DNA of 64,000 bases from a virus: positions 130,625 through 194,624 of IMG/VR virus record IMGVR_UViG_3300042520_001767; one strand, given 5' to 3'. Under the pieces are notes generated by a model. The model was not told the DNA's origin and ran no database searches. It saw nothing but the letters and a program-made list of their open reading frames with translations. This document shows positions 2,535 to 56,310 of this stretch, in pieces. Positions within the stretch are counted from its first letter, which is position 1. Each line of letters starts with the position of its first letter. The translations under genes were made by a program, and so were the position numbers.

Positions 2535-3848
2535 TTAAAATAATTCATCAATATCAAAACCATCTTCTTGGTCTTCATTATCACTATGACTATCTGTGTT
2601 ATCAATTGTTGTACCACCCATAAGTTCATCAAAATCAAAACCTAATTCATTTGAGACTTCTCCATCATTATATTTAGCACTTTTATTTATAGCTTCATTA
2701 AATTCTTCTGTTTTAATATCATTACTAACTTCATTTACAATATCTTTAATAATTTTCTTCCCTTCATTAGTGTTTGCCATTACTTCTCTCATTTTTACAT
2801 TGAATTCGTCTACTGGTAATGCGGCCATCTCACTATAAATGTGGTGTTTCATATGGAAATCATCTGGTTCTATTGCATTCGTGAATCTAGACCAAAGACC
2901 TGGACCCATACGCATATCCCATGGTTCAGCAGCTAAAAAGTCAGCTTTATTTATAACAAATTCACCAGTTTTTTTATCTTTAGGTAAACCATGTGCTGAC
3001 ATTAATTCCATAACACCTTTTACTAATTCATGGATAAGAACTGGGAAAACCATAGCTTGTACATGAATAACAGCTTTTGGGTTATCCTTACATGGAAACA
3101 TAACCCTAACAACACCACCATTTACACCATTTTCCATATTAGGTATAATATAGTACATGTAATCAGCTGCTGCCATCATTTTAGAATATTTATTAGATAA
3201 ACGAGGTTCAATGTCGGTTAATTCATCATCAACCATGTGAAACATATGATTACATTTTTTAGCTGCACCTTGTGTCATTGCGTTAAGAAATCTTCTTTTA
3301 TAAACTTCTTTATTTGCGTTCTCCATTGATTCATGACTATCAAATTCCATTTGAACCTCCATAGGTTTAGGGTTCTTTTTTGTTCCTTCCATATTTATTC
3401 TATCGGTTAGTTCTGCATGTATTTCAACAACATCTTCACCCATATCATATTCTTCACGAATCATTTTTATCGCCAAGTCAACTAATTTTTTTTTGTTTTT
3501 TGATTCTAATTCCATAGTTTCAATAACCAGTGGCATCATGTTACTCATAACTTCAGAATTATCAATTGAATCACAATCAAAAGCTCGCTTATATCTTTTT
3601 GCTACTTCACTAAATCTTTCCCCCATGATTGTTTCCTCAAAACTATTTTCATGACCTTCTGGTAATACTGGACTACCACTTAAAGAGTGTCTTTTCTCTC
3701 TCAAATCAGCTTCAAGTTCTGGGTTCATTCTTTCAGTTAAACCTTCTGGGTATAGAATACTTTCATTTAAAGGTTTAGACTTACTAACTTGTTTACCTAA
3801 TTTAGACTTTCTTAGTGCTTCTTCAGCTATTTTTCTGTAATCACTCAT
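2535..3848 (-). CDS. Hypothetical phage protein (437 aa, acidic C-terminus)
   Basis: Long ORF in the operon upstream of terL. Confidence 0.8.
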   Translation of the reverse strand: MSDYRKIAEEALRKSKLGKQVSKSKPLNESILYPEGLTERMNPELEADLREKRHSLSGSPVLPEGHENSFEETIMGERFSEVAKRYKRAFDCDSIDNSEVMSNMMPLVIETMELESKNKKKLVDLAIKMIREEYDMGEDVVEIHAELTDRINMEGTKKNPKPMEVQMEFDSHESMENANKEVYKRRFLNAMTQGAAKKCNHMFHMVDDELTDIEPRLSNKYSKMMAAADYMYYIIPNMENGVNGGVVRVMFPCKDNPKAVIHVQAMVFPVLIHELVKGVMELMSAHGLPKDKKTGEFVINKADFLAAEPWDMRMGPGLWSRFTNAIEPDDFHMKHHIYSEMAALPVDEFNVKMREVMANTNEGKKIIKDIVNEVSNDIKTEEFNEAINKSAKYNDGEVSNELGFDFDELMGGTTIDNTDSHSDNEDQEDGFDIDELF

Positions 3849-13326: not shown

Positions 13327-14145
13327 ATGAATAGAGAGATTTATCCAAAAGTTAAAATAATTATGACGAATTCAATTAAAGAAGCCAAAAACTTTGATGA
13401 TGTAAAAGTTAGACCAGAACATATTATTTTATCTATGTTATTAGATGACGATAATGAATGTGTGAAAACACTTAAAAAACTAAAAATAGATACTACAGAA
13501 CTTTATGATAAATTATCTGATTACGTTAGAAAAAATGATTTAACACCTAGAGCGTATACCTCAGTAAAACGAACACTACCTTTTTCTGAAGAAACCAAAT
13601 CAATAATAGCTAAAGGTGTTGATAAAGAATGTGAAGGGTTAAATGATACCATGATTGACACAACACATATCATGTTAGCTATTTTAATAACTAAACAACC
13701 AGTTGTTGATTTTTTAAATTCTGTAGGGGTGAATTATAATTTATTTAAAATAACTATGATAGGAAACAAACCAGAAGACATCAAAAACGGTGCATTAGGT
13801 GATGACATGAATGAAGAAAATGATTCATTCAAAAAGAAACAAAAACCAATCGACCCAAAAAGTAAAACACCAGTTCTGGATAATTTCTGTAGAGACGTGT
13901 CTAAAGCTGTTGAAAAAGGGGAGATTGACCCAGTTGTTGGTAGAACTACCGAAATAAAACGTGTTTCTCAAATCCTTTCTAGAAGAAAGAAAAATAACCC
14001 AATCCTTATCGGTGAACCAGGTGTTGGTAAATGTTTTATTGGTGATACTCAGGTAGTTATGAGGAATGATTTAACTGGTGAAGTTTTTAAAGCTACTATA
14101 AATGAATTCCTAAAAACGTTTACCGATACCGAAACAACAAATTAA
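13327..14145 (+). CDS. clpC: ClpC-type AAA+ chaperone, N-terminal fragment fused to a 37-aa split-intein N part
   Basis: Clp-N repeats, DPVVGR.EI....QILSRRKKNNPILIGEPGVGK followed by CFIGDTQV... and a stop. Confidence 0.92.
   Translation: MNREIYPKVKIIMTNSIKEAKNFDDVKVRPEHIILSMLLDDDNECVKTLKKLKIDTTELYDKLSDYVRKNDLTPRAYTSVKRTLPFSEETKSIIAKGVDKECEGLNDTMIDTTHIMLAILITKQPVVDFLNSVGVNYNLFKITMIGNKPEDIKNGALGDDMNEENDSFKKKQKPIDPKSKTPVLDNFCRDVSKAVEKGEIDPVVGRTTEIKRVSQILSRRKKNNPILIGEPGVGKCFIGDTQVVMRNDLTGEVFKATINEFLKTFTDTETTN
14032..14142 (+). mobile_element. Split intein N-fragment (37 aa)
   Basis: Block A CFIGDTQVVM directly after Walker A Lys. Confidence 0.88.
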
Positions 14146-14206
14146 ACAATTATTATTTATCTTTCTTGTAAATTCTTTATATTTATAAGAAAGATAAATT
14201 TAAAAT

Positions 14207-15640
14207 ATGAAAATAAAATATAAAAAAAATGGTAATTTTGAAATAGAGTTTACTGATTATTTCAAAACTATTGATGATTTAAAAGAATTTATTAAAAAAA
14301 ATAATAAGTTTGTTAATGTTGAAAACATAGAATTAAAAATAATAAATGTATATAACGAATTAGCTAATTTAGATGTTAGTATTAAATCTAGTATTTTAGG
14401 TTGGACAGTTATTAAACAATTTAAATTTAAATATGTTAGACCAAACAATATTAATTTCTGGTTAGAAAGGGGTTATGGTATTGATGAATTTAATCAATAT
14501 AATAATTCATTAATTAATGAATTATGCGATATAAATAACAATAAATTCAAATTTAATAATTTTAAATTTGAAATGATTGGTATACCTAAATGTAAACTTT
14601 GTGGGTCTAATTTAAAAATAGAACCATCTATTGGTCGTTATAATATTATTTGTTGTTTGAACAGTGAGTGTGATACTAATAAACATAAAGAAATTGAATC
14701 AATTAGTCATTTAAGTTTTTTACCTATTGATATGTTTTTGAATAAAAATAAACGAATAAATATAACTAGCAAAATTAATAAAGAATATTGGTTATTGAAT
14801 GGTTATACATATCTTGATTCAATCAATAAAGTTAAGGAAATAAAGAATAATTTAAAATTAGTAAATGTTAATAGTTTTGAGTATTACAAAACAACAACAG
14901 ATAAAACAGATGATGAGATAAGAAAAACAATCAAAGAGATGTCATCATTATGTGTTGAATATTGGTTAGAAAAAGATATAACATTAGAAGAGGCTAAAAA
15001 TAAAATATCTAACTTACAAAAAATAAATTCAAATAAAATAATCAAAAAAAGAAAAGAAAATCCAGAACAATATTCAGCAACAACTCAAACACAAATTGGT
15101 TATTGGTTGAATAAGGGTTTTAGTGAAGAAGAAAGTAAAATAAAATTATCTGAAAGACAAACAACTTTTAGTCTTGAAAAATGTATTCAAAAATATGGTG
15201 AAACAAATGGTTTAAAAAGATTTAATGAAAGACAAAAAAAATGGTTATTGAACAATAAAAGAAACAATTTCTCTAAAATATCACAAGATTTATTTTGGGA
15301 TATTTTAGAATCGGATAAATCAATAAGTGATAATGAGATATATTTTGCGACATATAATAATGGTGAAAAAAACAATAGTGGGAAAAATCATGAATATCGA
15401 TTAGACGTAATTGAAAGTTATATACTACCAGATTTTTTTGATAAAACAACTGGGAGAATAATCGAATTTGATGGAACTTATTATCATAGGTTAACTCCAG
15501 AAAATTCATTAAGAGAGGAAAAAAGAGATAAAATGATAATTAAATCTGGTTATGAAGTGTTACATATTAGTGAATTAGATTATAAAAATAATAAACAAGA
15601 AATAATAGACAAATGTGTTGCGTTTCTAAATAAAAAATAA
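14207..15640 (+). CDS. Free-standing putative homing endonuclease (Vsr/DUF559-like PD-(D/E)XK C-terminus)
   Basis: C-terminal PDFF...IIEFDGTYYH...RD..I...GY.VLHI.E; repeated YWL.KG motifs; lies between the intein halves. Confidence 0.75.
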   Translation: MKIKYKKNGNFEIEFTDYFKTIDDLKEFIKKNNKFVNVENIELKIINVYNELANLDVSIKSSILGWTVIKQFKFKYVRPNNINFWLERGYGIDEFNQYNNSLINELCDINNNKFKFNNFKFEMIGIPKCKLCGSNLKIEPSIGRYNIICCLNSECDTNKHKEIESISHLSFLPIDMFLNKNKRINITSKINKEYWLLNGYTYLDSINKVKEIKNNLKLVNVNSFEYYKTTTDKTDDEIRKTIKEMSSLCVEYWLEKDITLEEAKNKISNLQKINSNKIIKKRKENPEQYSATTQTQIGYWLNKGFSEEESKIKLSERQTTFSLEKCIQKYGETNGLKRFNERQKKWLLNNKRNNFSKISQDLFWDILESDKSISDNEIYFATYNNGEKNNSGKNHEYRLDVIESYILPDFFDKTTGRIIEFDGTYYHRLTPENSLREEKRDKMIIKSGYEVLHISELDYKNNKQEIIDKCVAFLNKK

Positions 15641-15671
15641 TAACTTTACAAAAATAAAAATAAAAATAAAT

Positions 15672-16076
15672 ATGATTAACGAATTTAAAAAAATAACAAA
15701 ATCATTTGATATGAGTGATTTTAGTATCTTAACTGATACTGGTTTTGAAAAATTAGAAAAATTACATGAAACAATTCCATATGATGTATATCATCTTAAA
15801 TTGGCTGATGGTAAAGAATTAAAATGTGCTGATAATCATATCGTATTTATTCAAGAATATGATGAATCAACAATGGAACCAATCTTTTTAAAAGAAATTT
15901 TTGTTAAAGATTTACCTAAACATTCATTTATTATGGTGTCTGATGATAATGGTAATTTAAGTGAATCTGAAGTTGTTGAAATAACCAATTTAGGTTATGA
16001 AGAAATCATGTATGATTTTGAATTAACTGAATCATCAAATAGACGTTATTTCACAAACGGAATTTTATCACATAAT
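15672..16076 (+). mobile_element. Split intein C-fragment (135 aa)
   Basis: Contains blocks B, F and G and ends His-Asn before Thr. Confidence 0.88.
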
Positions 16077-17882
16077 ACATCTATCGTTGAAGGTTTGGCT
16101 CAAATAATACACGAAGGTAACGCACCTAGAACACTTATTGGTAAACGTATCTATGCGTTAGACTTATCTAGCATTGTTGCTGGTACAAAATACCGTGGAC
16201 AATTTGAAGAAAGAATGAAAGCAATTCTAGAAGAATGTAAAGCTAACCCAGATATCGTATTATTTATCGATGAATTACATACAATCATTGGTGCTGGTAA
16301 CGCTTCTGGTTCTCTGGATGCTGCAAACATCTTCAAACCAGCATTGGCTCGTGGAGAACTTCAAGTAATTGGTGCAACAACACTTGATGAATACAGAGAA
16401 AATATTGAAAAAGATGGTGCTCTAGTTAGACGTTTTCAACAAGTGCTTATTGAAGAACCAACATTAGACGAAACAAAAATTATTCTTAATAATATCAAAG
16501 AAAAATACGAGAAACATCATAGAGTTAAATATACTGACGAAGCTATTGAAGAATGTGTTAAATTATCAGCTAGATATATAATGGATAGAAGTATGCCAGA
16601 TAAAGCTATTGATGTTTTAGATGAAGCTGGTGCAACAACTAATATTAGTGTTGAAAAACCAGATAATATCAAAGAATTAGAGAATAAAAGAACTGAAATT
16701 AATGAAAAGAAAAAAGAAGTAGTTGTTAAACAGAAATACGAAGAAGCAGCAAAGCTTCGTGATGAAGAGAAAAAGGTTACAATTGAGTTAGAAAAAGCGA
16801 TGACTGATTGGCAATCTAAATTAGATAATAACGTTACTACCGTAGGTGTTGAAATAATTTCAGAGGTTGTATCTATGATGACTGGAATCCCTCTAACGAA
16901 AATATCTACTCAAGAGACAAAAAGACTTATGAGTTTGGATAAAGAACTCATGGGTAAAGTTATTGGACAAGACGATGCAGTTGCCAAGGTTGTAAAAGCA
17001 ATAAAACGTAATCGTATTGGAATCAAAGATAAAAATAAACCTGTAGGTAGCTTTATTTTCCTAGGTCAAACAGGTGTGGGTAAAACGCTGTTAGCCAAGC
17101 TTTTAGCTGAACAAGTATATGGAGATTCTGATTCATTAGTAAGAATGGACATGTCTGAATATATGGAGAAACATTCTGTATCAAGACTTATTGGTCCACC
17201 TCCTGGGTATGTTGGGTATGACCAAGGTGGTCAATTAACTGAGAAAGTTAGACGTAAACCACATTGTGTTATTTTATTTGATGAGATTGAAAAAGCACAT
17301 GACGATGTATTTAACTTGTTATTACAGTTATTAGATGAAGGTATGCTTACAGATGGTCTGGGTCGTAAAGTTAATTTCAAAAACACTCTTATCATTCTAA
17401 CATCAAATATTGGTGTTAGAGAAGTTAACACTTTTGGTAAAACTATGGGTTTCGAAACAGCTGAAAGTATTGTAAATGAAGAAAACAGAGCTCGTTCAAT
17501 TATTGAAAAAGCTTTGAAGAAAAAATTCAAACCAGAATTCCTAAACCGTATTGATGAAGCAATTGTATTTAGAAGTTTAACTGAAGAAGATATACATAAA
17601 ATCATCTATTTAGAAATTGAAAGCTTACAAAAACGTGTAATTGAAATGGGGTATAACCTAACAGTAACAAAAGAAGCTATTGAATTTTTAGGTAAACAAG
17701 GTTATGATGAAGCTTATGGTGCTAGACCACTAGCCAGAGCTATCCAACATTATGTTGAAGATAAAGTAGCTGATGAGATACTAAACGAAAACATAAAAGA
17801 AGGTGAAACGATAGAAGTTTCATTCGATACTAAAAACGAAGAATTGGTTATTAAACCAATTAAAACTAAAAAAATTAAATAA
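15672..17882 (+). CDS. clpC: Split-intein C part (135 aa) fused to ClpC C-terminal fragment
   Basis: CADNH block B, YFTNGILSHN|TSIVEGLA, LFIDELH, second Walker A GQTGVGKT, FDEIEKAH, YGARPL. Confidence 0.93.
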   Translation: MINEFKKITKSFDMSDFSILTDTGFEKLEKLHETIPYDVYHLKLADGKELKCADNHIVFIQEYDESTMEPIFLKEIFVKDLPKHSFIMVSDDNGNLSESEVVEITNLGYEEIMYDFELTESSNRRYFTNGILSHNTSIVEGLAQIIHEGNAPRTLIGKRIYALDLSSIVAGTKYRGQFEERMKAILEECKANPDIVLFIDELHTIIGAGNASGSLDAANIFKPALARGELQVIGATTLDEYRENIEKDGALVRRFQQVLIEEPTLDETKIILNNIKEKYEKHHRVKYTDEAIEECVKLSARYIMDRSMPDKAIDVLDEAGATTNISVEKPDNIKELENKRTEINEKKKEVVVKQKYEEAAKLRDEEKKVTIELEKAMTDWQSKLDNNVTTVGVEIISEVVSMMTGIPLTKISTQETKRLMSLDKELMGKVIGQDDAVAKVVKAIKRNRIGIKDKNKPVGSFIFLGQTGVGKTLLAKLLAEQVYGDSDSLVRMDMSEYMEKHSVSRLIGPPPGYVGYDQGGQLTEKVRRKPHCVILFDEIEKAHDDVFNLLLQLLDEGMLTDGLGRKVNFKNTLIILTSNIGVREVNTFGKTMGFETAESIVNEENRARSIIEKALKKKFKPEFLNRIDEAIVFRSLTEEDIHKIIYLEIESLQKRVIEMGYNLTVTKEAIEFLGKQGYDEAYGARPLARAIQHYVEDKVADEILNENIKEGETIEVSFDTKNEELVIKPIKTKKIK

Positions 17883-44965: not shown

Positions 44966-45136
44966 AATTTCTTTGTGTTAATTGATTAGATTACAAAGAT
45001 AATAAATTTATTTCAACATACCAAATTTATTTTAACTTATTTTTAATTGTATTATTACCTTTTTGTTTTTCAATTACATTTATACAATGTGGTAACTTTA
45101 TCCATTGGTTTTACTATATGTTTACTACATTAGTCA

Positions 45137-45159
45137 CTGTTAGCAGGTAGTTATAACCA
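45137..45159 (+). mobile_element. Array head site A (attI-like or half attC)
   Basis: CTGTTAGCAGGTAG|TTATAACCA; 18/20 identical to 51991-52010. Confidence 0.55.
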
Positions 45160-45162
45160 ATA

Positions 45163-45399
45163 TTAAAAAGCATCTTCATCTTCGTAATATGTGTTTTCTC
45201 CACGAATCGCATAAATTTCTTTTAATAAGTCTTTATCGTCAATTAACCTTGTTAAAAGTGTTTCATCCCATTTGCCCATATCTGATAAATCGTCATTTAA
45301 ACTTTCTAAAACTTCTAAAGTATTATCTACTTCTTCATCTCCATAATCTGAACGCAACTCATTTAATTCAATTTCAATTCTTTGTTTTAAATTTTCCAT
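45163..45399 (-). CDS. Cassette ORF, hypothetical (78 aa)
   Basis: Between head site A and attC-like site 1. Confidence 0.75.
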   Translation of the reverse strand: MENLKQRIEIELNELRSDYGDEEVDNTLEVLESLNDDLSDMGKWDETLLTRLIDDKDLLKEIYAIRGENTYYEDEDAF

Positions 45400-45411
45400 A
45401 ATAAATACTGG

Positions 45412-45545
45412 TTATAACAGCAATTACACGATATTGCTAGATTGTGATTAATTTAAACTTTGTTTTGTATCTTTCAATTCCGTGTTAAACCGAAAGATAG
45501 TTTTGTGCTTTTACGCAACAGACGTGTAGCTGCAAAACGTTGGCG
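45412..45545 (+). mobile_element. attC-like site 1
   Basis: TTATAAC-A-GCAATTACACG...CGTGTAGCTGC-AAAAC-GTTGGCG. Confidence 0.75.
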
Positions 45546-45713
45546 GTCATTGTACCACCAAAAGGATAAAATAAAAGTTCATTGACAATATTAAAGATGC
45601 TTTGTGCAGACGCAGAATGCTGTAATAGTTTTGTTTCGGTAATCTATTTTTATAATGCAGTGTCGTTGACACTTAAAACTATTTCAAAATTAACAAATAA
45701 AAAAAGAAAGCTT

Positions 45714-45851
45714 ATGAAACAAATTAAAAAGTTACCAAAAACCGTGAAGTCAATTATTGTTCAATCTATTAAAACACTTTGGGTTATCGGGACATCTATT
45801 ACGGCAACTGCCGTTCTGTCTTCATCATTATATTGTCAAAGAACTAATTAA
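45714..45851 (+). CDS. Possible small peptide (45 aa) in a largely non-coding cassette
   Basis: MKQIKKLP...; the track start 45582 is doubtful. Confidence 0.3.
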   Translation: MKQIKKLPKTVKSIIVQSIKTLWVIGTSITATAVLSSSLYCQRTN

Positions 45852-46229
45852 AATATTATTTAAATGTTCATTGAAAATATTGAAAGTACCTACGTTAACT
45901 GACCACTAACGTAACAATTAATCAAACCAAAGTAAGGCTTGTCGTTTTACTTTTGATTAATTTGTGAATAACAAAGTGTTTATCGGAAACCGTAAGAGGT
46001 TGGTCGCTTACCGACAAAAAAATAATCCATAGAAATGGGAACAATTATTTTTGGGGCGTACATTCTCCTAAGAAAATTAAGAAAGTTTGTAAAGATTAAA
46101 TTTGACGTAACAATTAGATTTAAAAACTAACAAACCGAGCCGAAACTCTTAGGAGGGGTAAGCTCAACATAAGGACACTTTCAATATATTTCAAAGAACT
46201 TAATTGTATTAATAAACAAAACAACGAAC

Positions 46230-46355
46230 CGCCAACAGCAGTTACACAAGATGCAAGGATTTAGTGGAATTACCGTTTCGCATTGAACTTTTATCTTAAA
46301 TAGAAAATATGCAGTCACGAAGTCTTGCACCTCGTGTAGCTGCGGAACGTTATAA
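46230..46355 (+). mobile_element. attC-like site 2
   Basis: CGCCAAC-A-GCAGTTACAC...GTGTAGCTGC-GGAAC-GTTATAA. Confidence 0.75.
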
Positions 46356-49932: not shown

Positions 49933-50769
49933 TTAATTTTCTACTTTGTCTAACTCTTTTTGAATAATAGCAACCAATTCATACTTTTCATCAGCCATTG
50001 CTTTTTCTTTGAATCTATCTAATACAAGTTTGTGATATTCACAATCTTCTGTAGGGTAACATTCATGTTCGTATGCTATATCAATAATTGTTGACATATA
50101 GTCACTTAATGAATATTCGTCTTCAAAGTTATCTTCTTCTGTAAACTTTTCTTCGTTACATTCAAAATATGCATCAACATCTCCATATTGTACAATCATT
50201 GCCATCTCCAATGCTTCAAAACTACCACCTTCGGGAACATTTACTTCAACCTCAACTCCACCAACCAAAGTATAAGTACCTACATTATATCCAAAGTCTT
50301 CATCAGAATATTCAACTTCAAAACGTGCTTCGGGATATTTTTCAGATAGTTTCACAAGTAAAGCAAATGGTGTACTCCATGCTGTATTAAAACTAATTAA
50401 GTTATCAGATATAGTTACTTCACTAGCATTCCACTTTGTACCCCAATTATTTATTTGCCAACCATACCAATCAGAAAACCCATATTTTTCAATAAACTTA
50501 TCAGACATTTTTTTTGTAATACCTCTTGATAAACCCCAAGCCTTTTCACTATCGGTTAATTCACCTTTTGCAATACGTTCTTCTTGTGCTTCGTATTCTT
50601 TTTTTGTAATTATTTTTACGGGACTTGTTGTACCCTCTAATTCTTTTGGAATAGGTGCAACTTTATCAAAATCAAATTCACTTCTTTCACTTTTGATTTC
50701 ACTTTTTATCTTTGCTAATAATTCATCACTCGCATTGATATTCACATTGTTTGTTATCCAGTTTGGCAT
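49933..50769 (-). CDS. DUF1281/YubB ferredoxin-like domain protein
   Basis: MPNWITN start; WY.W..NNWGTKWNA...F.TAWSTP...YSDEDFG. Confidence 0.7.
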   Translation of the reverse strand: MPNWITNNVNINASDELLAKIKSEIKSERSEFDFDKVAPIPKELEGTTSPVKIITKKEYEAQEERIAKGELTDSEKAWGLSRGITKKMSDKFIEKYGFSDWYGWQINNWGTKWNASEVTISDNLISFNTAWSTPFALLVKLSEKYPEARFEVEYSDEDFGYNVGTYTLVGGVEVEVNVPEGGSFEALEMAMIVQYGDVDAYFECNEEKFTEEDNFEDEYSLSDYMSTIIDIAYEHECYPTEDCEYHKLVLDRFKEKAMADEKYELVAIIQKELDKVEN

Positions 50770-50830: not shown

Positions 50831-51037
50831 TTATAACATAGATAATATCACTTTTCTATAAGATTTTTTAAAACCCCTTGCTTTTAATTCTCTCCATACA
50901 TGGTCAGAATCTAATAACTCACAACTAACCATTAAATTATCATTACTAAAAATATCAATTACGTAACCATTCGGATTGTAATATACCATTACTTTTGTGA
51001 TACCTTTTTCTACTTGACCTAAATAAATCTTTTCCAT
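50831..51037 (-). CDS. Hypothetical protein (68 aa)
   Basis: ORF after promoter. Confidence 0.65.
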   Translation of the reverse strand: MEKIYLGQVEKGITKVMVYYNPNGYVIDIFSNDNLMVSCELLDSDHVWRELKARGFKKSYRKVILSML

Positions 51038-51116
51038 TTTGTTTTTGATTATGAATCAAAGATAAGGATTATATTTCTATAATCCAAATCTTTTTGTAAT
51101 AATTTTATATAATCTA

Positions 51117-51329
51117 TTATTCAATTTGATTATATCCAAAACCTAATATTTTAACTTCTTTTTTACTTGAATCACAACCAATCACATTACAAATTTCAAC
51201 CCATCCATATTCTGAATAGTCTTCAGCATATAAAATAAGATTGAAACCCTCTGCTTTTGTTTCCCAATTCTTTTGTTTTAAAGCTTCGACTTGGTGTGGT
51301 GCTAAAATCTTTTTAAATTCTTTTTCCAT
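51117..51329 (-). CDS. Hypothetical protein (70 aa)
   Basis: ORF after module. Confidence 0.7.
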   Translation of the reverse strand: MEKEFKKILAPHQVEALKQKNWETKAEGFNLILYAEDYSEYGWVEICNVIGCDSSKKEVKILGFGYNQIE

Positions 51330-51406
51330 AGTGTTTGTGTTTATTGATTAGATTACAAATATAAAACAAATAATCCATATTACCTAACATAATATGGATT
51401 ATTTTT

Positions 51407-51715
51407 TTAATAAATTGCAATTTGTTTTAATTCCACATCACGGATATATTCTTCTCCATCTTCATCAAAACAATTAAAACTCATATAAAATACACTGGTA
51501 TTGTTTTCATAAGGTAAAATAACACTTTTAAGAGTTTTTTCATCATGAATAACCTTAACACGTTCTTCATAACAAAATTCATCTTCGATTGCTTGACCAA
51601 CCTTATTAACAAGGTTAGCATAAAAATTATCATTTAATAAAGTGTCATCAATATCTTTGATGATTGCAAACACTTCACTCTCGCCCATTTCATTCAATGT
51701 ATAATTCTTTATCAT
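51407..51715 (-). CDS. Hypothetical protein (about 102 aa)
   Basis: Start MIKNY after leader. Confidence 0.7.
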   Translation of the reverse strand: MIKNYTLNEMGESEVFAIIKDIDDTLLNDNFYANLVNKVGQAIEDEFCYEERVKVIHDEKTLKSVILPYENNTSVFYMSFNCFDEDGEEYIRDVELKQIAIY

Positions 51716-51796
51716 AATTTCTTTGTGTTTATTGATTAGATTACAAATATAAAACAAATAATCCATATTACCAAACATAATATGGATTATTTTTAT

Positions 51797-51961
51797 TTAT
51801 TCTTCATTCATTCTTCTAGTTAATTCTTTTCTAGCTAAATCCATAAAATACCAATCATAACAAGTAGAAAAATGAACCCCAAAATAATCATCTTCTGCTT
51901 TCCCTTTTAGGTACAGTTTGATATAAGTTAAGAAAATATAATCATATCGTAACTTATTCAT
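51797..51961 (-). CDS. Hypothetical protein (54 aa, not in track)
   Basis: Manual: MNKLRYDYIFLTY...RRMNEE. Confidence 0.55.
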   Translation of the reverse strand: MNKLRYDYIFLTYIKLYLKGKAEDDYFGVHFSTCYDWYFMDLARKELTRRMNEE

Positions 51962-51990
51962 TTTTAGTTAAATATCGTATAGTAGTGTAG

Positions 51991-52013
51991 CTGTTAGTAA
52001 GTAGTTATAAGAA
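51991..52013 (+). mobile_element. Array head site B (attI-like or half attC)
   Basis: CTGTTAGTAAGTAG|TTATAAGAA. Confidence 0.55.
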
Positions 52014-52020
52014 ATAAAAA

Positions 52021-52176
52021 TTATTTCTCATCTCTTATCTTCAACATCCAATCAGCCATATTATATGCGCTTTTTGAAAGTTCTTTATAGTTTTCTAAAT
52101 GCTTTGTTCTTGTATAAATTATTTCCATAGCTTTTATCGCTAGTTTATCTCTTAAAGTTAATTTATTTTTACCCAT
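52021..52176 (-). CDS. Cassette ORF (51 aa, not in track)
   Basis: Manual: MGKNKLTLRDKLAIKAMEII...KIRDEK. Confidence 0.65.
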   Translation of the reverse strand: MGKNKLTLRDKLAIKAMEIIYTRTKHLENYKELSKSAYNMADWMLKIRDEK

Positions 52177-52188
52177 AATTTTTACTTC

Positions 52189-52322
52189 TTATAACAGCAA
52201 TTACACGCTATTGCTAGATTGTGATTAATTTAAACTTTGTTTTGTATCTTAAAGTTCCGTGTTAAACTGAAAGATAGTTTTGTGCTTTTACGCAACAGAC
52301 GTGTAGTTGCAGAACGTTATAT
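52189..52322 (+). mobile_element. attC-like site 3 (near-identical to site 1)
   Basis: TTATAAC-A-GCAATTACACG...CGTGTAGTTGC-AGAAC-GTTATAT. Confidence 0.78.
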
Positions 52323-52328
52323 GATAGC

Positions 52329-52559
52329 TTACCCAACATCGTGTCCGAACTTTATATCGAAATAATTTGAACTATCAATCACATCGTTTTCATTTGCACA
52401 ATAACCATCAAGCCAAGCATCTGTAATTTGCTCTTTTTCTAATTCAATATATTTTTTATTTTTAATTATTGCTAATACGCTTCTACCTACAAATCCTGAA
52501 TCTCCTTCTTTTTTAGCTAATTCTGTAAAATCATTGATTAATTTTTGTAATGCTGTCAT
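52329..52559 (-). CDS. Cassette ORF, hypothetical (about 76 aa)
   Basis: Start MTALQKL; between attC 3 and 4. Confidence 0.75.
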   Translation of the reverse strand: MTALQKLINDFTELAKKEGDSGFVGRSVLAIIKNKKYIELEKEQITDAWLDGYCANENDVIDSSNYFDIKFGHDVG

Positions 52560-52583
52560 AATCTTTGTGTTTAAAAAGCCATC

Positions 52584-52714
52584 ATATAACAATTCATTGT
52601 AGCAATTGTGGCACTTGGCTTTATTAATAATTGGTTTTGTACTTGTTTGGTTAGGTTTTAATTCGATAATTTGGCAGTCCTAATCCACAACTGCAACAAT
52701 GCTTAACGTTATAA
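52584..52714 (+). mobile_element. attC-like site 4
   Basis: ATATAAC-AATT-CATTGTAGCAATTGTGG...CCACAACTGCAACAATG-CTTAAC-GTTATAA. Confidence 0.72.
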
Positions 52715-52720
52715 GTAATA

Positions 52721-52942
52721 TTATTTTTGTTGCTCATCCGTAATAAATCCACCTATCCTTCCAAATCCTTCCCTCTCATATACATAAACAAATTTACCTT
52801 TAGCATTTTTAAATAAATTTTCAATATTATTAGTTTGTTTAACTGAGTAAATTTCACCATTTTCATTAATCATTATTACGGATGGTACATAAAACCAATC
52901 TTTAACCTCATATTTTTTTGCTAATTCATTATATTTTTCCAT
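52721..52942 (-). CDS. Cassette ORF, hypothetical (73 aa)
   Basis: Between attC 4 and 5. Confidence 0.75.
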   Translation of the reverse strand: MEKYNELAKKYEVKDWFYVPSVIMINENGEIYSVKQTNNIENLFKNAKGKFVYVYEREGFGRIGGFITDEQQK

Positions 52943-52980
52943 AATTTCTTTTTATATCGTAAAACAAAAATAATACATAT

Positions 52981-53034
52981 TTATAACAAATGATAAACAA
53001 CATTAAAACGATTGTTTATCATCGGACGTTAGCA
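52981..53034 (+). mobile_element. attC-like site 5 (short, 54 bp)
   Basis: TTATAAC-AAA-TGATAAACAA...TTGTTTATCA-TCGGAC-GTTAGCA. Confidence 0.75.
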
Positions 53035-53041
53035 GAAATGG

Positions 53042-53467
53042 CTACTGACCGTACTTCATTGAAAGTTCTTCAAATTTTCTGCGTTCAGATTGTTCCTTTA
53101 ATCTTTTATCTCTTGCTTCTCTTAATTTAGGTAGTCTAACTTTGATATTACCCAACCACTCATTAAAACACACTTTTACATTTTCAAAATATTCAGGTTT
53201 ATCACAATCTTGTTTTCTACCATAAAATATCTCTCCATTGTCATCTACTATAATGTTTTGCTTTTGAAAAGTAAGGTTACTGAATGAAAACAACCCACCA
53301 AAAGGATAGTCGTTGAATGAAGAAGAAGATTGTTTATGCCATCTTTTGCAAGCCGATAATAAGTCTTTTTCATTTTCAATCGTACAACTATCATCCCAAG
53401 TGTCTTCATTATACATATAATGTCCTCTTTGAGAGTAGTTCACTATAATTCTTATTTTACGTTCCAT
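53042..53467 (-). CDS. Cassette ORF, hypothetical (141 aa)
   Basis: Between attC 5 and 6. Confidence 0.75.
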   Translation of the reverse strand: MERKIRIIVNYSQRGHYMYNEDTWDDSCTIENEKDLLSACKRWHKQSSSSFNDYPFGGLFSFSNLTFQKQNIIVDDNGEIFYGRKQDCDKPEYFENVKVCFNEWLGNIKVRLPKLREARDKRLKEQSERRKFEELSMKYGQ

Positions 53468-53513
53468 TTTTCTGTGTTTTTAAATTATACCCTTGTAAAT
53501 TAACCGCCACTAC

Positions 53514-53644
53514 CGCTAACAAGGGTTTGTAGCAATAGGGGCAGAAGTGCTTTAATTAAGCTGTGTACTTCTAATCAGCTTTGGTGGTACATTGAACAGT
53601 AGTGCTATAAATCCCCTACTGCTACAAGCCCAGAATCGTTAGGC
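53514..53644 (+). mobile_element. attC-like site 6
   Basis: CGCTAAC-AA-GGGTTTGTAGCAATAGGGG...CCCCTACTGCTACAAGCCC-AGAATC-GTTAGGC. Confidence 0.78.
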
Positions 53645-53872
53645 AAAATGTAAAACAGAACCACCACTTGATATAGCTAAATTATTTGCGGTTGAATATT
53701 CCATTTTTCTTGCTTCGTCTTTATCAAAAGTCCAATTAAATTTATACCCATTTAATGTGCTATATCCGTGTCCTTTCATAAATTTTTTACCCTTTTTAAC
53801 CAAATACACTTCGCCTAACATCCGTTTTGCGTCAGGCGGGTTTTGGTGGTTAATTTTTGTTTCTGTTTTCAT
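53639..53872 (-). CDS. Cassette ORF (77 aa) whose N-terminus is encoded inside attC 7
   Basis: MKTETKINHQNPPDAKRMLGEV reads through the site. Confidence 0.65.
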   Translation of the reverse strand: MKTETKINHQNPPDAKRMLGEVYLVKKGKKFMKGHGYSTLNGYKFNWTFDKDEARKMEYSTANNLAISSGGSVLHFA

Positions 53873-53946
53873 ATCAAATTTTGTAATTAAGTGAAAGTTT
53901 TGTGCTTCGATTTCCCGCCCGAACGCAAAGCGGAGTTCCGTTAGCA
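53813..53946 (+). mobile_element. attC-like site 7
   Basis: GCCTAAC-AT-CCGTTTTGCGT-CAGGCGGG...CCCGCCCG-AACGCAAAGCGG-AGTTCC-GTTAGCA. Confidence 0.78.
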
Positions 53947-53950
53947 GTAA

Positions 53951-54133
53951 TTATTCCCACTTTGGTGCTCTATCGTGTTCAATACATAAATTTTCAACTA
54001 TGCTTTGAGCAATTATCTCTAATTCTTCCTCGTCAATATGGTTTATCAATACGGAGTTTCTTAATGTATCTAAAACATTTTCTTTTGTGCTTTGTGTTGC
54101 CATCACGTTTAGTATTATAACTACTGCTAACAT
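53951..54133 (-). CDS. Cassette ORF, hypothetical (50-60 aa)
   Basis: Between attC 7 and truncated attC 8. Confidence 0.6.
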   Translation of the reverse strand: MLAVVIILNVMATQSTKENVLDTLRNSVLINHIDEEELEIIAQSIVENLCIEHDRAPKWE

Positions 54134-54250
54134 TCGCTAAACAATAGTTGGGTTAATTTTTAAATTTAAAGTTCAGTTTGTACTTTTTTAATCAGTCTTT
54201 TACCTAAGTTTGGGTTTGTGACCATTTTTGAATTTCGTTTGTTTCAAGTA
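54125..54250 (+). mobile_element. attC-like site 8, left arm only
   Basis: TGCTAAC-ATT-CGCTAAACAATAGTTGGG...; right arm replaced by a 31-codon ORF and a promoter module. Confidence 0.55.
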
Positions 54251-54360
54251 CTTTAATATCATAAAGTTCATGGAATACACTTTTTTTATTAGTTGCCATA
54301 CGTTTAATTGATTAGATTACAAAGATAAGGCGAATATTTCTATTCGCCAAAAACTAAATG

Positions 54361-54504
54361 TTAAAGTTTTGTTAAACATTCATCACAAACAATACTATCA
54401 TCTTCCAAAACCCACATTTTACCATCTTGAAATAAATCTTCTTCATATTCGTAGAATTCAATGTGTTGACAAATTACACAAGTTAACCTTATATCATTTT
54501 CCAT
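54361..54504 (-). CDS. Small Cys-rich protein (47 aa, not in track)
   Basis: Manual: MENDIRLTCVIC...VCDECLTKL. Confidence 0.55.
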   Translation of the reverse strand: MENDIRLTCVICQHIEFYEYEEDLFQDGKMWVLEDDSIVCDECLTKL

Positions 54505-54528
54505 AGTTATAAATTAATCTCAAAGATT

Positions 54529-54831
54529 TTAATTACAATTTTTGCATAGGTCTTGGTCATCATCTACATCGAAATCCATTTCTTCTCTATTAAAATGCTC
54601 ATGACAAGAATTACACATAAATAGGGGTTCTCCTATATTACAGAAAAAATCCTCTTCTACAAAATATACCGTTTCGTAATAAGCTATTACAATATCCATA
54701 GGGATTTCACTTTCATCTTCTACTTCTCTTCCAACTACCTCTTCTAAAGAACCATCGTCTTTGTGTTGGCTGTACCAACGACTTCTTAATTCTTGTAATT
54801 CATCTTGGTTTAACTCGTGTACTGATTTCAT
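54529..54831 (-). CDS. Hypothetical protein with C-terminal Zn finger (100 aa)
   Basis: CNSC...CKNC. Confidence 0.7.
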   Translation of the reverse strand: MKSVHELNQDELQELRSRWYSQHKDDGSLEEVVGREVEDESEIPMDIVIAYYETVYFVEEDFFCNIGEPLFMCNSCHEHFNREEMDFDVDDDQDLCKNCN

Positions 54832-54841
54832 AATATAAGTT

Positions 54842-55021
54842 TTAAAGGTTAACTGAACTTGCTACTTCATTTCTAATTTTATCTGCATTAATACCTACTG
54901 CTTCTAAAATACTTTCCATACCAACAAGTTTGTAATATAATTTATCATATTCTTTACTTGTACTATTAGATAGAAAAAATTCTTTTAAAGTTAATCTATA
55001 TTTTGCTATTGCTTTTTCCAT
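54842..55021 (-). CDS. Hypothetical protein (59 aa, not in track)
   Basis: Manual: MEKAIAKYRL... after module. Confidence 0.6.
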   Translation of the reverse strand: MEKAIAKYRLTLKEFFLSNSTSKEYDKLYYKLVGMESILEAVGINADKIRNEVASSVNL

Positions 55022-55089
55022 GATTTTTCTTTGTGTTAATTGATTAGATTACAAATATAAGTAAAAAAATTATATCTACCAAATTTATT

Positions 55090-55386
55090 TTATGCTATTT
55101 TATATAACATAAGGGTATAATTTTCAGTACTAGCATACCAACCCCTTTTTATACACCATTCATTGAATTTGATATAAACATCAATATCATATCGCTTATT
55201 ATCATAAATCCTATTATCTAAACTACATATAGGATTTTTATCCTTATCAGTATATGACACATCTGAACCATTTCTTAACCATAAACAATTATAATTGCAT
55301 ATATCATTACTAAACTCAAGTCCATCCTTAATTTCTAAACTAGGAAACCTTTTTTCTAATGCTAAGATTATTTCTGTTTTTGTCAT
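55090..55386 (-). CDS. Hypothetical protein (98 aa)
   Basis: ORF after module. Confidence 0.7.
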   Translation of the reverse strand: MTKTEIILALEKRFPSLEIKDGLEFSNDICNYNCLWLRNGSDVSYTDKDKNPICSLDNRIYDNKRYDIDVYIKFNEWCIKRGWYASTENYTLMLYKIA

Positions 55387-55472
55387 AATGTCTTTGTGTT
55401 TTTGATTACATTACAAATATAGTGAAAATAAAATAACCCACCAAATAAATGATAGGTTATTTTTAATTTATT

Positions 55473-55709
55473 TTATTCTATATTATTACACAATTCTTCC
55501 ATATAATGATTAACATTTTGATAATGGATTTCAGTTTCATTTATAGCTTCAATTTCAGCATATAATTCAGCTGGTAAGTCGTCAGCATCTAAATAGTCTT
55601 TTCGTTCCTTAAAAACGCTCATTTCACGTTCAAATGTTCCTTTAGTGTTTATTTGACTATCCACATAAACTTTAATTAGTTTTTTTTGTTTGTTTGTTAA
55701 ATTTCTCAT
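55473..55709 (-). CDS. Hypothetical protein (78 aa)
   Basis: ORF after module. Confidence 0.7.
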   Translation of the reverse strand: MRNLTNKQKKLIKVYVDSQINTKGTFEREMSVFKERKDYLDADDLPAELYAEIEAINETEIHYQNVNHYMEELCNNIE

Positions 55710-55794
55710 GATTTCTTTGTGTTAATTGATTAGATTACAAATATAAAACAAATAACCCATATTACCAAACATAATATGGATTATTTTAAATTAT

Positions 55795-56310
55795 TTATTT
55801 ATTTTTAATCTCATATTTTTGACTAACCAATAATTGATTAACGTAAACGAAATAATTTTTTTCATTTTCAGTTTTTAAAATATAAGTATAAGATTCATAT
55901 TTATAACCATTGGTTAAACGAATAGCTTTAATTCTTTTGTTTAAATTAACTAATTCATTTCCTCTTAAATCAAAATAACTTTTACCGTCACAATTAAATT
56001 TTTGCCAAGATTTTAAAACTAATTTAGTATCATCCTCGAATAAGAAAATTATTTCGTCATTTTCCATACAATGACCTATCCCAACTGATTTTACAGATGT
56101 ACTGTTATAACTAATTACCCCACCAATAATTTTAAACATTGGTGTAATACTAAAACCTATTTTACCATCTTCACTACATAATAGACGTTCTGATAAAAAT
56201 ATATATTCTTTATCATTCATAACATCTTTTTCGTAGTTTAATTTCAAATTATTTTGGCTAAAACTCAATGTGCTCAATAGTAGTAGAGCTCCTAATAATA
56301 ATTTTTTCAT
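55795..56310 (-). CDS. Secreted protein (171 aa)
   Basis: Signal peptide MKKLLLGALLLLSTLSFS-Q, Bacteroidota type. Confidence 0.75.
   Translation of the reverse strand: MKKLLLGALLLLSTLSFSQNNLKLNYEKDVMNDKEYIFLSERLLCSEDGKIGFSITPMFKIIGGVISYNSTSVKSVGIGHCMENDEIIFLFEDDTKLVLKSWQKFNCDGKSYFDLRGNELVNLNKRIKAIRLTNGYKYESYTYILKTENEKNYFVYVNQLLVSQKYEIKNK

Follow-up and report, generated by a model that had tools for sequence, protein, structure and literature searches.

The 64,000 nucleotides (nt) analysed here, positions 130,625 to 194,624 of IMG/VR virus record IMGVR_UViG_3300042520_001767 and referred to below as the window, come from a large phage of the Flavobacterium type, the early region of which very probably holds mobile gene cassettes in an integron-like arrangement. 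Two arrays of the same build are found, array B at 51975-54165 and array A at 45125-46352. Array B consists of five complete and two partial TAAC...GTTA imperfect palindromes that alternate with six small open reading frames (ORFs) on the minus strand. An initial annotation of the sequence had described this alternation of small ORFs with palindromes bounded by AAC and GTT and had placed it at 51991-54300. Both the alternation and the array were recovered; the arrays extend beyond these limits, as array A shows. The palindromes themselves are real, and only the length of 54-134 bp given for them was slightly off, the complete sites measuring 48-128 nt (128, 125, 48, 125 and 128 nt for el1 to el5, in this order).

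Across each cargo gene, the sequence that follows one GTT is complementary to the sequence that precedes the next AAC. The six complementarities of this kind that had been quoted from the letters alone are all present at their positions. Four of them were retrieved by a repeat search, namely 52004/52175-52195 (21 nt, 95%), 52316/52576 (15 nt, 93%), 53638/53805 (15 nt, 87%) and 53940/54117 (15 nt, 93%), and two are visible by eye (52708/52978, 9/10; 53028/53507, 11/14). Over the 10 nt outside the core, flanks that face each other across a cargo match at 8.2/10 positions (n=25), compared with 4.2/10 for the two flanks of the same site (n=28) and with 4.0/10 when flanks are combined in any other way (n=241), a difference far beyond chance. 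The pairing was further examined in 27 junctions from array B, the Flavobacterium phage lillamy9-1 (L004 2248-8962) and the IMG/VR contig L090 (1060-6289). Positions 1-12 beyond GTT and AAC are paired in 22-27 of the 27 junctions, and positions 13-16 are at chance with 5-7 of 27. Position 8 is unpaired in every junction, with C before AAC opposite A after GTT in 25 of 27. In several cassettes, this C is the C of CAT, i.e. it belongs to the start codon of the cargo gene. The integron cassette rule, which the initial annotation had recognized, is obeyed in 27/27 junctions, and natural breakpoints lie within GTTAT. Circularization of a cassette would bring its two ends together in an outer helix of 15 bp that includes the fixed mismatch. 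The 12-nt pairing across the cargo is hard to explain unless the circle, or an equivalent synapse, is a real intermediate.

Movement of whole cassettes is found in phages that carry the same site family. Site el1 is 86-89% identical (blastn) to sites in the Flavobacterium phages lillamy9, sniff9, morran9 and snusmum9, and these four phage types have arrays of 9-13 sites of the same kind. The genomes of lillamy9-1 and lillamy9-3 are both 38268 bp long and differ by one moved unit of 439-444 nt that comprises the ORF gp015 and the site upstream of gp015. The unit is located between two sites in lillamy9-1 and right behind the promoter-distal half-site ...TGTAGTTATAA in lillamy9-3, with 100% identity, so that the recipient is the TAGTTATA half-site at the array end. 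The junctions of this translocation overlap by GTTATAA, GTTAT and CGTTAT. Among five further isolates, one cassette deletion, two insertions and one replacement are seen, in lillamy9-7, lillamy9-6, sniff9-1 and morran9-1, and all breaks fall at the site-terminal GTTA. Cassette order, the comparison of which had been proposed at the outset, thus differs between these phages, with gain, loss and translocation at GTTA.

Cassettes and half-sites of the window also recur in other viruses. Cassette B1 (52002-52319) is present in the unrelated viral contig L089 (3770-4087) with 92% identity; the similarity has GTTA at both limits, and the L089 copy adjoins a half-site ...CGATAGTTATAGG. In contig L095, the half-site module of array B is kept (79% over 73 nt) and the first cassette is different. 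An invariant TAGTTA is common to the half-sites of arrays A and B, lillamy, L089, L090 and L095. Contig L089 has the same half-site (..CGTCTATACGATAGTTAT..) twice, at 3081 and 3769, 690 nt apart, perhaps because the contig has a second primary insertion site or because the end of an array was duplicated. Between L090 (4579-4730) and the window (52173-52323), a site and the 15-nt leader to the start codon are 91% identical, and the downstream ORF is different. This hints that new cassettes could form by swapping the gene behind an existing site.

Given the lillamy translocation, the whole-cassette insertions and deletions and the comparisons with L089 and L095, the mobile unit is TTA-cargo-TAAC-site-G on the plus strand, and the promoter-distal half-site behaves like attI in these movement events. 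The site is thus located upstream of its own gene, a polarity reversed relative to classical cassettes. That the cargo points opposite to the usual cassette direction had been judged from spacer asymmetry; it is now shown by the lillamy translocation, the whole-cassette changes in Lillamyvirus and the recurrence of B1 in L089. A converse assignment derived from the asymmetry of loop and bulge, with the minus strand as the 'top' strand and canonical cargo, was considered and is contradicted by both the L089 cassette and the movement seen in lillamy. All phage arrays that were examined have their cargo antisense to the site (window 5/5, lillamy 12/12, L090 9/9, L095 6/6). Both cargo orientations occur in bacterial loci. 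A chromosomal mini-array of Pedobacter sp. BS3 (L044 14325-15824), for example, has three small ORFs antisense to the sites, as in the phages, and lies about 10 kb from a sense-oriented kinase cassette that adjoins a recombinase gene.

To describe the site family, a covariance model (R1) was built from the sites of the window and of two Flavobacterium phages, which were aligned, assigned their pairing by hand and then re-aligned. The pairs were set by hand since RNAalifold, applied to a plain MAFFT alignment, returned no structure, the arms being misaligned. In the 64-kb window, R1 matches in eight places, all of them in the two arrays and all on the plus strand, opposite to the genes. The fold is kept across 32 sites, with 89% of the cells paired compared with 30-40% when the partner column is slid, and compensatory changes are found in 18 of the 19 stem pairs. 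The sites indeed differ from each other, as had been remarked initially: most diverge in sequence and retain the fold, and the TAAC/GTTA core is nearly invariant. Further conserved features are a T.G wobble at the fifth stem pair (24/31 sequences), an A.C mismatch deeper in the inner stem (29/31 sequences) and an asymmetric loop with 1 base (A) after TAAC versus 5-6 bases, the last of them C, before GTTA. Loop and bulge also keep their asymmetry between the two strands. AAC/GTT cores, a covarying fold, a bulge and fixed mismatches are present in the sites, and their geometry differs from that of attC (15-bp outer helix, loop of 1 versus 5-6 nt). No Rfam family reached its gathering score in the whole window. 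At E<=10, the search of 51000-56000 gave chance-level matches only and none to Flavo-1, so the resemblance to Flavo-1 suggested in the initial annotation was not borne out.

The phage had also been proposed to run the capture system itself, and this part of the proposal found no support. No tyrosine or serine recombinase (PF00589, PF00239) was detected among the 40 largest ORFs of the window, in the complete genome of lillamy9-1, where movement happened, or in four further phage records (the full 462-kb LR756500 record, contig L090 and two relatives of the window phage), three of the viral contigs searched being estimated to be 38-82% complete. The possibility that gp001 of lillamy, encoded beside the end of the array, is an unrecognized recombinase was also considered; its match is to an exonuclease PHROG.

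Sites of the same family are common in bacterial chromosomes. A search with a two-arm pattern yielded 37 site loci, mostly in Bacteroidota, and 29 of 41 sampled Flavobacterium genomes hold sites at E<=1e-8, some of them at least 42 each. Four Flavobacterium genomes (G304, G322, G338 and G342) have 28 to at least 46 scored sites. Many of these are located on short contigs, which is what fragmentation of assemblies at long arrays would produce, and the four genomes are comparable to those with chromosomal superintegrons. In Pedobacter sp. BS3, a tyrosine recombinase of 305 aa is encoded 2 kb from the first site. Its best NCBIfam model is XerA/integron-integrase NF040815 with 203 bits, below the cut-off of 220. 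The integron integrase model TIGR02249 scores 192 bits (cut-off 265) and is matched in two stretches because the IntI-specific insert is missing; the array-linked recombinase has about 17 residues where the IntI profile has about 74 positions. The nearest proteins in the PDB are XerA, IntI4 and XerD, and IntI4 (2a3v) is likewise matched in two stretches. A homologue of this recombinase at E<=1e-40 is present in 111 of 301 Bacteroidota genomes. Among the 30 best recombinase loci of these 301 genomes (gene plus 1.5 kb on each side), 14 hold a site, mostly downstream and on the same strand. In Flavobacterium G338, G316 and G319, the sole homologue at E<=1e-30 sits 4-6.5 kb from an array. Because no recombinase was found in the phages and the same sites are located beside an Xer/IntI-like recombinase in Flavobacterium chromosomes, the array-linked recombinase of the host probably serves the phage arrays in trans.

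The hairpins could instead be regulatory RNA or DNA elements, such as terminators, attenuators, RNase sites or mRNA stabilisers, with shuffling as a by-product of homologous or microhomology recombination, as for the promoter early stem-loops (PeSLs) of T4-type phages. Such a role would suit sites that are part of an operon transcribed by read-through and that necessarily fold in its mRNA as well; near-identical copies (el1 and A1; el1 and lillamy, 86-89%) could support homologous exchange, and the PeSLs are a precedent from phages (PMC2839356, PMC4122927). However, the half-site and the site of the moved lillamy cassette have only GTTATAA in common, yet the exchange is exact, and at least seven independent breakpoints are all located at GTTA. 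Sequence differs in most sites and the fold alone is kept. In a linear transcript, moreover, the 12-bp pairing across the cargo and the fixed A.C mismatch would have no role, the arms being 150-600 nt apart, and the same site family stands beside a dedicated tyrosine recombinase in host genomes. A purely regulatory origin of the pattern is thus regarded as unlikely.

Two further explanations concern the unit of movement and its age. In one, the palindromes alone are mobile, as miniature hairpin transposons of the REP/RAYT or IS200/IS605 type, and the ORFs are ordinary phage genes. The units that were moved, lost and gained in Lillamyvirus nevertheless consist of an ORF and one site each, and B1 recurs as ORF plus site, even if el1 is found in several phages where neither neighbouring ORF is conserved and the B4 gene is not part of a cassette in other phage contigs. 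The flank pairing spans the cargo and not the hairpin, the flanks of one site being at chance (4.2/10); there are no target duplications, and Pfam scans of the window ORFs revealed no HUH transposase. This explanation is considered the least probable. In the other, the arrays are inert relics that were captured once from a host array and are immobile in the window phage. The full fold and the fixed mismatches are retained in all five complete sites and the 12-nt pairing in all six junctions, though, and B1 is 92% identical to its copy in the other viral contig. Partial sites at both ends of array B, relatives without arrays and the lack of a recombinase among the window ORFs would be in line with such decay, and the last of these is shared by the integrase-less arrays of Lillamyvirus, which were rearranged among co-isolated phages. 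Inert relics are therefore considered very unlikely.

Several observations weigh against the interpretation as mobile, integron-like cassettes. No movement was seen in the window phage itself, and its nearest IMG/VR relatives (anchor gene 49933-50769, 43-63% aa identity) are without arrays, one alone having a single site. Cargo B5 has 87% nt identity to the 462-kb phage LR756500, up to TAACAT/ATG, with different sites on both sides; since el1 and B5 each occur elsewhere without conserved neighbours, site and cargo are not always co-inherited. The recombinase search of this phage covers the 64-kb window, so that an enzyme could be encoded elsewhere in its genome. As the array-linked recombinase is without the insert that defines IntI, its action on folded DNA is only putative. 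Folding as a single strand, and the choice of the strand that folds, are suggested by analogy with attC. The wobble counts favour neither strand (8 G.T versus 16 A.C outside the two fixed odd pairs), and the DNA folding energies of the two strands show no useful difference. Identical hairpins are also present in the mRNA, where roles at the RNA level are possible.

On balance, an array of mobile cassettes is preferred, and the arrays are presumably active in the window phage as well. Each cassette would comprise one small gene with an attC-like site upstream of it, in the plus-strand order TTA, antisense cargo, TAAC, hairpin and G. In the free circle, the cassette ends would close the 15-bp outer helix (AAC/GTT plus 12 bp with the fixed A.C mismatch), which would stack on the asymmetric internal loop and on about 20 bp of inner stem that contain the T.G wobble, the bulge and the second A.C mismatch. 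The cut within GTTAT would be made by an Xer/IntI-type tyrosine recombinase. Recombination between two sites would release the cassette as a circle, and the circle would be re-inserted by recombining with the promoter-distal TAGTTATA half-site or with another site. The enzyme would be the array-linked recombinase of the host, acting in trans during infection, and unrelated phages and host chromosomes could thus share cassettes. The cargo would be transcribed by read-through from a phage promoter at about 54327.

At its promoter-distal end, array B has an attI-like half-site (51975-52007, plus strand) that consists of the right arm only, ends in ...GTAGTTA and has no left arm and no R1 match; its crossover region GTTAT is located at 52004-52008. 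All sites described in the following are on the plus strand and all cargo ORFs with an assigned strand on the minus strand. Cassette B1 spans 52005-52316 and carries an ORF of 51 aa (52021-52176) with weak matches to PHROGs of unknown function. It is followed by el1 (52192-52319; 128 nt), which scores 129 bits with R1 and is about 90% identical to site A1 of the window. The B2 ORF (52329-52559; 76 aa) is without Pfam or PHROG match, and el2 (52587-52711; 125 nt) reaches 56 bits (E 4e-10). The B3 ORF (52721-52942; 73 aa) was taken from the ORF list, and the sole internal -7-like box, TATTTTTG, is found with this cassette at 52972. Site el3 (52984-53031) is a short form of 48 nt with 29 bits (E 7e-4), the arms of which are visible in the sequence. 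The ORF of cassette B4 (53042-53467; 141 aa) has 29 homologues with 46-91% identity, none of them with a family, and is followed by el4 (53517-53641; 125 nt; 56 bits), whose right end is the classical GTTAGGC. Cassette B5 is tightly packed between two sites: the ATG of its ORF (53639-53821; 60 aa) lies inside TAACAT of el5, and its stop codon TAA is the TTA of el4's GTTA. Site el5 (53816-53943; 128 nt) scores 110 bits. The B6 ORF (53951-54133) has 60 aa when read from the ATG inside TAACAT, and an alternative start is found at 54103. The promoter-proximal array end is formed by el6 (54128-54165), a decayed site of which only the left arm is left, with a weak R1 match at 54121-54224 (E 0.76). 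Pairing of its left flank with the flank after 53940 is still present.

Array A begins with an attI-like half-site (45125-45153, plus strand) that can be aligned with the half-site of array B. The ORF of cassette A1 (45163-45399; 78 aa) encodes an acidic protein without a family match in Pfam or PHROGs. Site A1 (45415-45541) is a near copy of el1 with 107 bits and ends in GTTG instead of GTTA. The cargo of cassette A2 (45542-46232, no strand assigned) comprises about 690 nt without a convincing ORF and without an Rfam match. The longest frame of the plus strand starts with TTG and has 89 aa, or 45 hydrophobic aa when read from its first ATG, and those of the minus strand have 34-49 aa; the product may be a small membrane peptide or an RNA. 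Site A2 (46233-46352) has the left core CAAC and scores 52 bits.

The putative promoter of array B (54320-54350, minus strand) has a -7 box TATCTTTG at 54327-54320, followed by the leader TAATCTAATCAAT. The combination of -7 box and leader recurs on the minus strand at 54327, 51751, 46623 and 45001. The recurrent module consists of a TAnnTTTG box with the leader directly after it, and often a short hairpin before it that overlaps the -33 region. Given the Bacteroidota-type -7 box, the recurrent leader and the presence of only one other -7-like box inside array B (at 52972), read-through from about 54327 is likely, and the phage promoter at this position probably drives array B. A single phage promoter at about 54310-54350 had been proposed initially; read-through from it is plausible. 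Pfam and PHROGs assign no function to the cargo of the window. In the arrays of Lillamyvirus, several cassettes carry DNA methyltransferases and one a helix-turn-helix regulator, which fits a role in anti-restriction or host takeover; the cargo of the window may have a counter-defence role of this kind, as had been proposed initially.

The remainder of the window is phage DNA, with a large terminase gene that contains an intein, a thymidylate synthase gene and a split ClpC gene. The terminase (2-2476) is split by an intein with a LAGLIDADG domain. ClpC (13327-17882) is distributed over two ORFs, the second with an intein-splicing signal, and a gene for a 477-aa DUF559-type endonuclease-like protein is located between them. 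The genome of the window phage is probably very large, since related viral contigs of 128 and 206 kb are estimated by CheckV to be 38% and 58% complete.

The arrays share many properties with integrons such as the superintegron of Vibrio cholerae. In both, promoterless cassettes of one gene each share a common orientation, and crossover takes place in GTT. The sites of both are imperfect palindromes, about 50-130 nt long, that have AAC/GTT cores and are conserved in fold and not in sequence, and each cassette begins with nucleotides that pair with the left core of the site it carries. Also common to both are a primary insertion site at one array end that is not palindromic, an Xer-related tyrosine recombinase beside chromosomal arrays and near-uniform sites within some arrays. 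In contrast to integrons, the linked recombinase is without the IntI-specific insert near patch III, the outer helix has 15 bp with a fixed A.C mismatch instead of a 7-bp R box, and the central loop has 1 nt against 5-6 nt. The cargo is reversed in all phage arrays examined, so that the site comes before the gene and can provide the start codon. Unlike attI, the half-site occupies the array end distal to the promoter, transcription of the cargo runs in its direction, and it has no intI gene as neighbour. The arrays are carried by a virus.

Clusters of attC sites lacking integrases (CALINs) are likewise arrays of sites and cassettes without a nearby recombinase gene that are presumed to be served in trans, and the phage arrays look like such integrase-less clusters served by a host enzyme. 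CALINs are, however, defined by canonical attC models in bacterial replicons, whereas the sites described here are non-canonical and belong to a phage genome of lytic type. As in the inverted-integrase integrons of the Treponema denticola type, recombinase gene and array have the same direction in most of the chromosomal loci. A link to the XerA-like 'integron integrases' reported from Archaea is that the best NCBIfam model of the array-linked recombinase is NF040815 (XerA/integron-integrase), which is matched below its cut-off (203 versus 220). The host phylum of the present system, Bacteroidota, differs from those of both. With the PeSLs of T4-type phages, the arrays share small accessory early genes in hyperplastic regions that are bracketed by stem-loops and shuffled as modules. 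PeSLs, in contrast, are promoter-terminator units thought to recombine by homology, whereas the present sites have no -7 box on the coding strand, diverge in sequence and have one fixed recombination position.

Integrons are regarded as bacterial platforms. Bacteroidota are named among the clades previously found without integrons in a 2024 preprint. A literature search returned no description of integron-like cassette arrays in phages or of such a system in Bacteroidota, and the paper that describes the lillamy phages makes no mention of cassettes, palindromes or hairpins. The arrays look like an undescribed integron variant common to Bacteroidota and their viruses. Their site family obeys the junction rule of integrons and is used by phages that are not related to each other; in Flavobacterium chromosomes, it is frequent and linked to a simpler recombinase. 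There is a reasonable case, put forward with less confidence than the nature of the region itself, that a second integron system, so far unrecognised, is common to Bacteroidota and their phages. In this system, an Xer-like recombinase without the IntI insert would act on attC-like hairpins with fixed A.C mismatches and an outer helix of 15 bp. During infection, phages with integrase-less arrays of reversed cargo would borrow the host enzyme and exchange early genes, such as those for methyltransferases and other likely counter-defence functions, with unrelated phages and with host chromosomes. The system is directly accessible to experiments because the lillamy, sniff and morran phages and the host Flavobacterium sp. 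LMO9 are cultured. If confirmed, it would offer a natural comparison for which features of IntI and attC the recombination of folded DNA really needs, and it would provide a mechanism for the fast turnover of small early phage genes and a route for gene traffic between phages and their hosts.

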